Shown here: positions 810 to 4,948 of the stretch, piece by piece
Layout: each line of letters starts with the position of its first letter
How positions within the stretch are numbered: the stretch's first letter is position 1
The notes under the pieces: generated by a model
Seen by the model: the letters and a program-made list of their open reading frames with translations, nothing else
The model's database searches: none
What the model was told of the DNA's origin: nothing
Program-made: the position numbers and the translations under genes
Source: a candidate division WOR-3 bacterium
GTDB taxonomy: Bacteria; Hydrothermota; Hydrothermia; JBDRYB01
Direction of reading: 5' to 3'
Assembly (NCBI GenBank): GCA_039803205.1
Contig: JBDRYB010000001.1
Location: forward strand, 299,413-363,412
DNA: 64,000 nucleotides

Positions 810-948
810 GGCTGAAAATTATAACGAAGGGGTGGCTCGCGGTTCCTCAAATGGCCCCTAATGTGCCCGGAAATCCGGACGGATCTGAGCGAACGCGCGG
901 CCTTGAAACTTCTCCATAATTTGCATTATCCTTTTGGCCGGAGGTAAG

Positions 949-2208
949 ATGGATCTTTTGCTTCTTTTTGGCGCATACATGCCCTACACCGTGGCCGCGG
1001 GCCTCAACTATCCTCACGGGGTAGGGGTGGGAGACATCAACGGGGACGGGCTACCGGATGTCCTGGTCTCGGATACATATGGTTCTCAGGTCTATTGGTA
1101 TGAGAACAACGGCAACTGGGGTTTCACCCGGCACTTCGTTGGCTCGAGCAGTTACCCGCTCTATGTTGACGCTGGGGACATTGACTCAGATGGTGATGTG
1201 GACATCGTTACAGGCGATTACCTGGGCTCCAACATTTATGTATTCTATAACTCAGGCAACGGTTCATCCTTCACATCCCGTGTCCTACCGACATCTGGCG
1301 AGGCCTGGGAGGTTGATCTTGGGGATGTGGACGCGGATGGTGACCTTGACATAGCCACAAGCACAGGCGGAGGGGTTCTCCTGTTCAGAAACGATGCGGG
1401 GCTCTTCACCCAGGTATATGTTGGTTCGCTGAGCTGGCCTCACGGGTGCAGGTTCTTTGACATGGAGGGAGATGGGCATCTGGAGATAGCCTCAACCCAT
1501 CCCTTTCAAGTATTCAAGAACGACGGAGCGGAGAACTTTAGCCTCTATTACCAGGATGCGAGCCTTCAGGAGGGGTGGGGCGTTGGCCCTGCTGACATAA
1601 ACGGCGATGGCTACATGGATGTAGCAGTGAACGATTATTATGGCGGAGCCACATATGTCTATTGGGGAAGCGCCTCTGGCTTCACGAAACAGCCAATAGG
1701 GCTTGCTGGTGAGTCGGAAGGCATGGACATGGGAGAGATAAACGCGCAGACCGGGGTGGACATCGCGGTTGGAGCGGCCTCAAGCTGGGTCATATGCTAT
1801 TACTACAACCCACCCGGCTTCACGGTAGAGATAGTGGATAACCTTTACGACGCCGACTTAGTCGTGATATGCGATCTGAACGGGGATATGTGTCCTGACC
1901 TGGTTGCTTCTGGCCCAATGGGCGGCGCGGTCTTGGCCTACGAGAACAGGAACTGCCCATTTGAGGTCAGTGAGGGGGACGGGAAGGGAGAGCCACAGCT
2001 CAGGATACTTTATGCCGAGCAGGGCCCTCTCGCGTTCCTCGCGGAGTGCTCTGGTGAGCTTGAGATATACGACGCGACCGGGAGGTTGGCCAGGGCATAT
2101 CCCATAGGGGGCTCTAATCAGAGAATAAGCCTTTCCGGCCTTGAACCAGGTGTCTACGCGGCGCGGGTCAAAGGGGTTGGGGCACAGGTTTTCGTTGTCG
2201 GAAAGTGA
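949..2208 (+). CDS. Secreted FG-GAP/VCBS repeat beta-propeller with T9SS-CTD-like tail
   Basis: Repeated GDINGDG/GDIDSDG/GDVDADG loops; C-terminal IYDATGRL...LEPGVY; ATG 949 follows GGAGGT. Confidence 0.8.
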   Translation: MDLLLLFGAYMPYTVAAGLNYPHGVGVGDINGDGLPDVLVSDTYGSQVYWYENNGNWGFTRHFVGSSSYPLYVDAGDIDSDGDVDIVTGDYLGSNIYVFYNSGNGSSFTSRVLPTSGEAWEVDLGDVDADGDLDIATSTGGGVLLFRNDAGLFTQVYVGSLSWPHGCRFFDMEGDGHLEIASTHPFQVFKNDGAENFSLYYQDASLQEGWGVGPADINGDGYMDVAVNDYYGGATYVYWGSASGFTKQPIGLAGESEGMDMGEINAQTGVDIAVGAASSWVICYYYNPPGFTVEIVDNLYDADLVVICDLNGDMCPDLVASGPMGGAVLAYENRNCPFEVSEGDGKGEPQLRILYAEQGPLAFLAECSGELEIYDATGRLARAYPIGGSNQRISLSGLEPGVYAARVKGVGAQVFVVGK

Positions 2209-2278
2209 GGGAAATTCAATTCGGGTAGTCCGGCTATCCGGTGCGAAGGCCGCGCCTAATCCGATATAATTTTAGTCC

Positions 2279-4948
2279 TTGATCCAGCAAAGGTTCGGCA
2301 AGTTTGAGATTCTCTCCTGGATAGGAGGGGGACAGTTTGCTGATGTTTTTCTCGCTCTGGATACCATAATCCAGAAGGAGTTCGCGATAAAGGTCTCGAG
2401 GGCAAAGCAGCGCGAGGCAGAGGCCATGATGGCGGAGGCACGCGTCCTCGCAAGCCTGGATCATCCGAACATCGTCCGTTTTTACTCGGCTGACCTCATA
2501 GAGGAGAGGCTGGTTCTTGTCATGGAATACATACCCGGCCGCAGCCTCCGGAGCCTGCTGGATGAGGGCCCCCTTTCCCTGCCGAGGACCATGAGGATAG
2601 CATCGGGCATCCTTTCCGGGCTCCAATACGCGCACGAGAGGGGGATAATCCACAGGGACATAAAGCCTGAAAATGTGCTTCTGGCGGAGGGCGAAAAGGT
2701 AAAGCTCACGGACTTCGGCCTCGCGGCAATGATATCCAAAGAGAGCTTCTCGGCCTCCATGGCAGGAACCCCCTTATACATGGCGCCCGAGGTCTGGGAG
2801 GGCCACGCCTGCATTCAATCTGACCTTTGGAGCGCGGCCGCGGTTATTTACGAGTGTTTGGCTGGACATCCGCCCTTCTGGGACGAGAGCTACGAGGGCC
2901 TGAGAAAGAAGATGATCTCATCCAAGCCAAAGCCTATCCAGAGGCTGAGCTCCCAGGCCAATCGCTTCCTGTCTAGAGCCCTCGATCCCTCTCCCGAAAA
3001 AAGGCCTCCCTCAGCAAAGGCCATGCTTGATGAGCTTGCAGAATCCCTCTCTGCCCAAACCGAGGCTGTTATAATAACAGGGCCCATAGAGGAACCGAAG
3101 CCAAGGTCGCCAATCCTGGAGGGGCTTTCGGATGAACAGGCTGAGGCTGTCCAGCACGAAGGCCATCTTCTCATTCTCGGTGGTGCTGGCACGGGAAAGA
3201 CCACATGCCTCGCGGCGAGGGCCTCCTGGTTCATCTGCGAGCGCGGCTTTGAGCCAGAATCCGTCTTTCTCTCGACATTCACGGGTCGGGGCTCAGGCGA
3301 GCTCCGCGAGAAGCTCCTGCCCTTTCTCTCTGAGAGCGAGATAAGGAGAATGTGGGTTGGAACCCTGCATTACCTTGCCTCCCGGATATTCTCCGCTGTT
3401 GCGGAACGGGAGGGTTTCCCTGAGGATTTTCTCATAGTTGACCAGGAGAGCTCCCTTAAAATGATGAGGGAAATCGTTGGATCAGAGCGCCAGGCAGGGG
3501 CCGTGCTCAGGGAGATATCCCGGGCAAAGTCAAACCTAGTGGGACCAAAGGCATACAGGGAGGCGGCGAAAACTCCGTGGCAGAACAGGGTTGCTGGTTT
3601 TTACGAGCGCTATCAGGAGGCGCTTACAGCCATGGGAGCCCTGGATTATGACGATGTGATAATTAAGGCCGAAAAAGCTCTCAGGGAGAATCCTGACCTC
3701 AAAGAGGACCTCACCAGAACCTTTCGCCTCATCCTCGTTGATGAGTTTCAGGACCTCAACCTCGCTCAGTTCAGGCTCATACTCGGGCTCACCGGCGGTT
3801 CTGCTTGGTTCACCGCGACGGGCGATCCCCTCCAGGCCATATATGGGTTCCGTGGGGCATCCCCGAGGTTCATAAACGCTTTTGCGGAACGCTTCAATCC
3901 CTATAGGGTCCACCTGAACAGGAGCTACAGAAGCTACGAGGAGATACTCTCGCTCGGCAGAAACCTCATATCCCACAATCCAGACCCTCCCTCTCCGGTC
4001 TTCGCTGTGAGGAGGGCAGAGAAAGAGGTTGTTCACCTCGTTGCTTTGGATGATCCGGAGTCTGAGGCAGGTTTCGTCGCTGACACGGTTGAGAGAATGC
4101 TGGATGAGGGGAGGAATCCGGAGGATTTCGGGGTCCTCTTCAGGACAAACGCGCAGGCTCGTGCATTTGAGGACGCTTTTTCAAGGCGGAGGATTCCCTT
4201 CAACATGGAAGGCGCCTCCAGCTTCTACAGGAGGCCGGAAATAAGGGCATCGCTCGGTTTCCTTCGCTTCATATCAGGGCAAAAGGACAAGGAGGACTTC
4301 GTCCTAATGCTGAGGCACTTTCTCGGGTTCAGGGGCGAGGAGGTAAAGTTGGCTACGCAGGGTTTCAGCCAAAAGTCCAGGCCCACAATGAGCAAGAAGC
4401 TCCCAGAGGATAAGCTATCTGCGCTGGAGGCATTCTGGAAATACATAACGGGTATCGGCCCAGAGGAATACGAGAACCTTACGCCCCAGGAGATCCTGAG
4501 AAGGTTCTATGATTTTACGGGCTATTCAAGGATATTCTCCGAAGCGCATACCCCTGGGAGGATAATGGAAAAAGATAATATTGAGGAGCTTCTCTCCCTG
4601 GCAGGGGGCTTTGGCAGGGGAGGGACCAGGCGGCTCCTCTCCCACATCTCCTTGACGCAGGAGCTTTCCGCTAAGGTAAGGGGTGCTGGAGGGGTGAGGC
4701 TCATAACCCTTCACGGCGCGAAAGGGCTGGAGTTCCCAGTGGTATTTCTCACCGGAATGGCGGACGGGCTTTTCCCATCGGGCTCCGCCATCACAAAGCC
4801 TTCGGAAATGGCCGAGGAGAGGAGGCTTTGCTATGTGGCAATAACGAGGGCGCTTGAGGAGCTTTTCATAACATATCCGAAACACAGCAGGGGGCGGTAT
4901 TTTGAGCCATCCAGGTTCATCTACGAAATGTATGTTGTGGAAAGATAG
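2279..4948 (+). CDS. Ser/Thr protein kinase fused to UvrD/PcrA-family SF1A helicase
   Basis: Kinase motifs [23 protein letters not shown]; helicase motifs [53 protein letters not shown]. Confidence 0.92.

Follow-up and report, generated by a model that had tools for sequence, protein, structure and literature searches.

The window analysed here is a stretch of 64,000 nucleotides from a candidate division WOR-3 bacterium (genome G000). It is a housekeeping stretch, with genes for biotin carboxylase, IspG, IF-2, NusA, tRNA ligases, MreB, PBP2 and RodA. At positions 2279..4948 on the forward strand, a gene encodes a kinase-helicase fusion of 889 residues; it starts with TTG and contains no internal stop codon. 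Residues 8-256 (2300..3046) form a Hanks-type Ser/Thr kinase domain of the RD type, residues 257-279 (3047..3115) a flexible, fast-evolving linker, and residues 280-884 (3116..4930) an SF1A helicase with motifs Q, I, Ia, II, III, IV, IVa, V and VI, all on the forward strand. Pfam assigns residues 10-248 to Pkinase (PF00069, 188 bits), 283-539 to UvrD-helicase and 544-867 to UvrD_C. The fusion contains no transmembrane-like stretch (maximum 19-residue hydropathy, 1.22). Its C-terminus lies 44 residues from the EERRL of motif VI, compared with a median of 113.5 in WOR-3 PcrA (20 of 21 scored), and the gene does not stand out by GC content within the first 20 kb. The original prediction had described one continuous 889-residue reading frame with complete kinase motifs, a short proline-rich linker and the full SF1A motif set, lacking a transmembrane segment, ending soon after motif VI and preceded by its own -10 box in a housekeeping context; on each of these points it proved correct.

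The -10 box is a TATAAT at positions 2265..2270 of the forward strand, 8 nt before the TTG. Genome-wide, TATAAT precedes start codons at distances of 6, 7, 8 and 9 nt in 121, 44, 32 and 34 cases, respectively; the count is 43 at a distance of 0 nt and between 1 and 17 at every other distance up to 19 nt. A scan for sigma-70 promoters, which requires a -35 box, did not include the TATAAT of the fusion among its predictions. Because the spacing of 6-9 nt is a genome-wide pattern, the element is likely, on sequence grounds, to be a leaderless promoter.

The linker (approximately residues 257-280) contains four prolines per 24 residues. In an alignment of 41 fusions it has no invariant column, its dN/dS is 0.31 compared with 0.04-0.08 in the four other scorable regions, and pLDDT falls below 50 at residues 261-275 of the AlphaFold2 model. 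The full-length model has a mean pLDDT of 84.4, with both domains predicted confidently, and a pTM of 0.55, so that the placement of the kinase relative to the helicase is not fixed; given this pTM and the low-confidence linker, the model lends no support to allostery between the two domains.

The kinase domain has the complete Hanks-type motif set (Gly loop, VAIK Lys, αC Glu, HRDxKxxN, DFG and APE). In the 41 aligned fusions, one of which lacks the N-terminus owing to the ORF call, the kinase residues K38, E53, D127, N132, D145 and E171 are invariant throughout (41/41), as are K307, D488/E489, Q519, Y522, R525, R551, H812, R857 and F880 of the helicase; the HRD arginine of the kinase is replaced by glycine in two sequences. 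The best match of the kinase domain in the PDB by sequence is StkP (E = 2e-37). The fusion is not a PASTA kinase of the PknB/StkP kind, as it has neither a PASTA match nor a transmembrane segment and scores 204 bits against NF033483 (cut-off, 450). The present genome encodes two other Hanks kinases.

The helicase belongs to superfamily SF1A by its motif set and its four-subdomain fold. Its best match is PcrA (1pjr, E = 3.5e-79) by sequence, and UvrD and PcrA by fold. All helicase motifs and the fold are shared with PcrA, UvrD and Rep (1pjr, 2is1, 1uaa, 9dci), but the fusion differs from them in its N-terminal kinase, in its missing C-terminal tail and in forming a separate clade that coexists with canonical PcrA. 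It does not reach the cut-offs of the NCBIfam models for pcrA, uvrD and rep (TIGR01073, 372 bits against 911), and its 2B region is shortened and variable, with 151-194 residues between motifs IVa and V compared with 186-207 in WOR-3 PcrA. PcrA itself is an ATP-driven motor that moves 3' to 5' on single-stranded DNA and is recruited to RNA polymerase or UvrB through its C-terminal domain. The positions of the fusion equivalent to those which we take to contact single-stranded DNA in PcrA are conserved, and the conserved motifs suggest that the fusion helicase translocates on single-stranded DNA, or unwinds DNA, in the 3'-to-5' direction.

A search of the genome for a separate canonical uvrD/pcrA gene found a PcrA-like gene at G000:C1:404857-406986, which encodes the C-terminal tail and is 32% identical to the helicase of the fusion. 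In a FastTree phylogeny of 77 helicase domains (32 of the 41 fusions, 21 WOR-3 PcrA and 24 other matches), the fusions form one clade (SH-like support, 100) apart from WOR-3 PcrA. The separate tailed gene and the distinct clades rule out that the fusion is the housekeeping PcrA with an added kinase.

Contigs from four of four sequencing runs cross the kinase-helicase junction without joints or indels; these are contigs rather than raw reads, all from one study, and two of the runs are possibly the source of the present DNA. Together with the occurrence of the same fusion in relatives, this rules out an assembly artefact or a fusion private to this assembly, the two grounds on which the original prediction could have fallen. 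A single match to the fusion was found in each of 104 of the 242 genomes of the WOR-3 phylum, representing 43 of 104 genera, and in 80 of the 181 high-quality genomes (E = 1e-95 throughout). In the same class, 30 of 40 sampled relatives carry it, and the 13 own-class rows in the helicase tree group together (97). The members of the fusion cluster are labelled candidate division WOR-3 or Ca. Hydrothermae. Between the present genome and one relative (G002) the dN/dS is 0.066, with dS near saturation. These sequence data indicate an old and conserved fusion with intact motifs. It is dispensable across the phylum, as 138 of the 242 genomes have no match at E = 1e-95, and this would also fit a role in defence.

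Beyond the phylum, the 150 best rows from 1.84 billion representatives, among which fusions scoring below about 530 bits could not appear, included 34 two-domain members of the family and one distant fusion. Two of ten distant fusion clusters are labelled Thermosulfidibacter or Aquificota, and one of ten 'bacterium JZ-2024 1'. A search of genome contigs for related loci found one fusion among 12 loci; none of the 75 metagenome loci listed matches the helicase part, and ordinary kinases dominate there.

The original prediction had also stated that the gene has no partner. This holds at the present locus but not for the family. Among 41 loci, counting the one in the window and 40 more, the only widely shared neighbour of the fusion is a gene for ARPP-1 (PF20208, DUF6569), present at 24 loci. 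The neighbouring ARPP-1 genes encode 282-337 residues, always lie on the strand of the fusion, and overlap it by 1-8 nt at seven of the 24 loci. In the present genome, the ARPP-1 gene (G000:C1:238351-239277) lies outside the window, on the same contig at a distance of 62 kb, and has its own TATAAT box. Its product is a full member of PF20208 (221 bits; cut-off, 27); C112 and Q90 are invariant in 27 of 27 sequences, and the protein also keeps the invariant Arg92, Glu114, Arg117 and Trp118.

Across the 242 genomes, 99 contain both genes, five only the fusion, three only ARPP-1 and 135 neither, although this table overstates the number of independent events because related genomes are not independent; a profile of the cytoplasmic ARPP-1 clade matches in 102 genomes. 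Five of the eight mismatched genomes have genes cut at contig ends: the fusion is split in two in G089 and G222, and ARPP-1 is fragmentary in G140, G067 and G084. In the other three, a fusion was found and no ARPP-1 (G066, 80% complete; G037, 93% complete), or ARPP-1 ends at a contig edge and no fusion was found (G160). Outside the class of the present bacterium, the two genes lie next to each other in 57 of 62 genomes; within it they do so in none of 37. Three families of this class (f2, f5 and f8; 19 genomes) lack both genes at the thresholds used, with weak PF20208 matches in four of the 19. Linkage alone does not explain the joint retention of the two genes, since in all 37 own-class genomes that have them they are unlinked, and yet these three families lack both. 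The fusion is thus co-inherited with one clade of ARPP-1, even where the genes are unlinked. Across 33 genomes, distances in the fusion and ARPP-1 trees correlate with a Spearman coefficient of 0.74, and the trees have 15 of 30 splits in common; kinship would by itself produce a correlation of this kind, and the ARPP-1 tree does not recover the class of the present bacterium as a single group.

The structure of ARPP-1 alone is predicted confidently (pTM 0.91). A Foldseek search returned no match at E = 0.001, and the best VIA-align match was a phage baseplate domain (Z = 5.2; r.m.s. deviation, 2.7; 62 residues aligned); judged from the model, ARPP-1 appears to have no clear relative of solved structure.

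We predicted the complex between the kinase domain (residues 1-260 of the fusion) and residues 12-309 of ARPP-1 from the present genome. The score was 0.70, compared with 0.00 for the best of three controls. Of the solved complexes, 116 of 157 attained this mark, as did two of 215 mismatched pairs, a calibration that is roughly valid with our own alignments. The runs share at least 79% of contacts, and the pLDDT of the partner is at least 80. The predicted interface comprises 17 kinase residues (1-4, 11-19, 22, 24-25 and 41; positions 2279..2401, forward strand) on the N-lobe, at its first strands and on the face with the glycine loop, centred on Trp14 (2318-2320). This tryptophan is shared by 37 of 41 WOR-3 fusions and by 27 of 32 representatives, whereas the 70 other kinase domains (out of 105) that align at the position all lack it. 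Five of 19 family-specific kinase positions fall in the interface (p = 0.005), an enrichment that is not independent of the prediction because the same alignment was used for the complex model. The ARPP-1 side includes Arg25 and Glu195, which are commoner in the 95 homologues with the highest scores than in the following 25, the two groups being defined by score rank and not by gene linkage.

The predicted docking site of ARPP-1 is thus the N-lobe of the kinase, around Trp14. We know of no similar complex. A candidate substrate site of the kinase is Ser178 of ARPP-1, which is present in 99% of the 95 top homologues and in 12% of the next 25. Phosphorylation of Ser178 is suggested by this clade-specific pattern, but the residue lies outside the predicted interface. 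As the modelled contact involves the N-lobe and glycine loop and leaves Ser178 outside, ARPP-1 resembles a subunit with a regulatory or sensor role more than it does a substrate. The single-gene character of the defence considered in the original prediction is not supported, because a cytoplasmic ARPP-1 is co-inherited with it and predicted to bind its kinase.

The same interface would tether ARPP-1 to the motor, and the two proteins could form a self-contained complex. In it, the helicase would move ARPP-1, acting as a repair enzyme, along DNA, and the kinase would serve as a tether and an on/off switch that works through autophosphorylation and sends no signal outwards. The invariant residues of ARPP-1 and the conservation of Ser178 are in keeping with this, as is the listing of PcrA/UvrD proteins as phosphorylated in several bacteria (PMC4754617). 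On the other hand, the model places Ser178 outside the interface, and a mere tether would need neither the invariant catalytic set nor the activation-loop Thr164. We regard such a complex as rather improbable.

A different reading starts from defence. The fusion and ARPP-1 could be a two-protein anti-phage system that has become a fixed chromosomal trait: the helicase would sense phage replication intermediates and ARPP-1 would detect either modified nucleic acid or ADP-ribose made by the phage, with the kinase halting growth. Kinases and SF1 helicases both occur in defence systems, and in Mokosh type I the helicase gene itself contains a kinase (bioRxiv 10.1101/2022.05.11.491447). ARPP was first described in counter-viral systems centred on ARG (PMC9503650). 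The absence of the pair from whole families would also fit defence, and the related fusions in other thermophilic lineages may reflect transfer. The GajB, mad6 and PD-T4-6 profiles of PADLOC match the two domains of the fusion, but these matches look generic, with 372 bits for TIGR pcrA and 251 for GajB.

The original prediction had drawn analogies to Gabija and Mokosh, and as memberships both fail. Gabija resembles the fusion-ARPP-1 pair in having a UvrD-like subunit in a complex of two proteins, as far as its published descriptions were consulted, and GajB profiles match the fusion; however, the partner of GajB is the OLD nuclease GajA. A GajA-type TOPRIM domain (PF20469) is absent from the present genome (96% complete), was found in four of 14 controls, and does not recur beside the fusion, with no GajA match among 117 neighbours. 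We know of no kinase in GajB. Mokosh type I likewise has a single protein, MkoA, that carries both a Ser/Thr kinase and an SF1 helicase, but according to the parts of the report consulted (bioRxiv 10.1101/2022.05.11.491447) its helicase is of the COG1112/Upf1 type and requires a PLD nuclease, whereas our fusion is UvrD-like and its partner is ARPP-1. UvrD families score best on the fusion helicase, and the window contains no PLD nuclease beside it. One of the 117 neighbours matches the DrmC profile, which we take to be of the PLD type. Nor does the fusion belong to the kinases of MADS (mad6) or PD-T4-6: the match to these profiles is confined to the kinase domain, and NF047741 scores 176 bits against a cut-off of 460.

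The neighbourhoods speak against defence as well. PADLOC found no match among the eight neighbours of the two genes in the present genome, ARPP-1 included. At 1e-10, seven of the 117 nearest neighbours from the 39 other loci match; only mad2 occurs twice, each time over part of the profile. There is thus no recurring defence partner, and no nuclease or other effector accompanies the pair. Each genome has a single match, the fusions of the present class group together in the tree, and in this class as a whole the two genes have come apart and both remained. Of 483 viral loci, the best 80 include no fusion. We consider an anti-phage system unlikely, while giving it serious weight.

The motor might also act on RNA-containing substrates, such as R-loops or stalled transcription or translation complexes, with the kinase reporting transcription or RNA stress. 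PcrA-type motors can act on R-loops. However, the fusion lacks the tail of canonical WOR-3 PcrA, through which RNA polymerase is bound, and is not Upf1-like. The proposed ligand of ARPP, any ribose-bearing molecule (PMC9503650), would be compatible with an RNA-linked role, but no RNA-repair gene recurs beside the fusion across the 41 loci. We regard a role of this kind as very unlikely.

The reading that we prefer is that the fusion and ARPP-1 are likely a device by which protein phosphorylation would be coupled to DNA that is damaged or single-stranded. Of the two possibilities raised in the original prediction, a nucleic-acid-sensing kinase for DNA-damage signalling thus still fits best. In its fuller form, to which we give an even chance, the fusion would be a DNA-tracking kinase regulated by ARPP-1, serving DNA-damage signalling as a chromosomal DNA-surveillance device. 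The SF1A motor would be loaded onto single-stranded DNA and travel 3' to 5', independently of RNA polymerase; as the fusion lacks the C-terminal domain of PcrA, recruitment to RNA polymerase or UvrB is not expected. ARPP-1, bound to the N-lobe, would gate the kinase, which would be switched on where motor and ARPP-1 meet. Two steps are the least secure: that the conserved Cys-Gln-Arg-Trp residues of ARPP-1 serve to recognise DNA lesions or adducts that end in a sugar, and that the DNA-bound complex phosphorylates itself as well as repair or cell-cycle proteins. The idea that ARPP-1 reads lesions follows PMC9503650, with its proposal of an SRAP-like role and the contexts with HIRAN and WYL that it describes; the chemistry of ARPP is a published guess there. 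Genes around the pair are for the most part housekeeping ones, and no known repair gene recurs beside it across the 41 loci.

A bolder version is a bacterial DNA-damage checkpoint of new build, in which the motor scans DNA, ARPP-1 captures sugar-ended lesions through its conserved cysteine and acts allosterically on the kinase from the N-lobe, and the kinase sends out a LexA-independent signal; we think this improbable, if worth stating. Of the 104 genomes with the fusion, 65 have LexA, as do 66 of the 138 without it, and the lack of anti-correlation rules out that the fusion replaces LexA/SOS.

Among known systems, YabT of Bacillus subtilis is the one that the fusion would work most like, although the two are built differently. 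YabT is membrane-anchored and, to our knowledge, has no helicase, whereas the DNA-binding part of the fusion is an ATP-driven motor, without a transmembrane segment and with ARPP-1 as partner. The analogy lies in a Hanks kinase tied to single-stranded DNA and chromosome integrity: YabT depends on single-stranded DNA and phosphorylates RecA (PMC4754617). The contexts of ARPP-1/DUF6569 given in the sections consulted of Iyer et al. 2022 (PMC9503650) are ARG systems, HIRAN, WYL and a secreted pair with PF01522; a kinase-UvrD protein is not among them. We found no description of a kinase-UvrD fusion, or of ARPP in a kinase-UvrD context, in open-access PMC and bioRxiv. Among the matches listed, searches for 'ARPP-1' with kinase gave only papers on eukaryotic ARPP-16/19 and on kinases; the anti-phage papers, in the parts consulted, concern HEPN and KKP rather than the fusion, and a paper on WOR-3 genomics does not mention 'helicase'. 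As far as these searches reach, the fusion combines known parts with an orphan partner in a way that is undescribed in open-access PMC and bioRxiv. A pure culture from the class Hydrothermia, strain sy37, has been reported (PMC12542636).

Bacterial kinases that read the state of DNA directly are rare, YabT being the example found in the literature. If our reading is true, the coupling of a kinase to a UvrD-type motor, retained by roughly four in ten genomes of the phylum, would be a new link between DNA maintenance and protein phosphorylation. The checkpoint version, if true, would in addition give ARPP-1 its first molecular function, and the damage-sensing kinases of eukaryotes a motor-driven counterpart. 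The orphan ARPP-1 family gains a specific predicted binding partner and surface, and its function thereby becomes testable with two soluble proteins from hot-spring bacteria.

Three further fusions of a Hanks-type kinase with a UvrD/PcrA-type helicase carry the labels Thermosulfidibacter or Aquificota (P0321, P0326 and P0318). In two of these three proteins Walker B is altered: Asp replaces the catalytic Glu, and because of this substitution the helicase motor may be weakened in them. The kinase is intact in the fusions with the altered Walker B. Substitutions in the kinase were seen in family f4, where the fusions at loci L044 and L046 carry HGD rather than HRD, with Phe at the position of Trp14, the family-specific N-lobe residue at the centre of the predicted ARPP-1 interface. 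Both genomes have kept ARPP-1 (PF20208), the co-inherited partner, despite these variants. A second, distant kinase and UvrD-like fusion, P0334 (963 aa), shares 28% identity with the nearest WOR-3 fusion, lacks Trp14 and is the single member of its cluster; in this protein the same architecture possibly arose independently.

Many WOR-3 genomes, whether the fusion is present or absent, also encode a second ARPP-1 paralogue (L087, L089 and L090), which is about 345 aa long and hydrophobic at its N-terminus. It may correspond to the exported type described in PMC9503650.

In one genome, G204, the gene that directly follows the fusion-ARPP pair on the same strand (L061:4703-5494) matches DrmC profiles; no such gene was seen in the other loci. 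The FG-GAP repeat protein gene upstream of the fusion gene (window 934-2208) is also found in the same-genus genome G002, and at other loci there is no link between this protein and the fusion system.

Neither a LexA DNA-binding domain nor a WYL domain was found in the whole genome that contains the window (G000, 96% complete). Within its class, LexA is present in 21 of the 41 genomes with the fusion, compared with 0 of the 19 without it. Elsewhere in G000, a signalling cluster adjoins a DNA ligase gene (G000:C3:129326-136854, L075). In it, a pair of Hanks kinases in tandem is accompanied by an FHA protein, a PP2C-like phosphatase and a gene resembling a response regulator; the labels of the phosphatase, the regulator and the adjoining ligase were assigned from motifs. 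The PP2C-like phosphatase could serve the fusion kinase.

Across the whole G000 genome, 231 of 1203 TATAAT sites lie 6-9 nt 5' of a start codon, a spacing far commoner than most other distances. Such a box is present at both the fusion gene (window 2265-2279) and the ARPP-1 gene (G000:C1, upstream of 239277). The spacing suggests that leaderless mRNAs are widespread in this organism.
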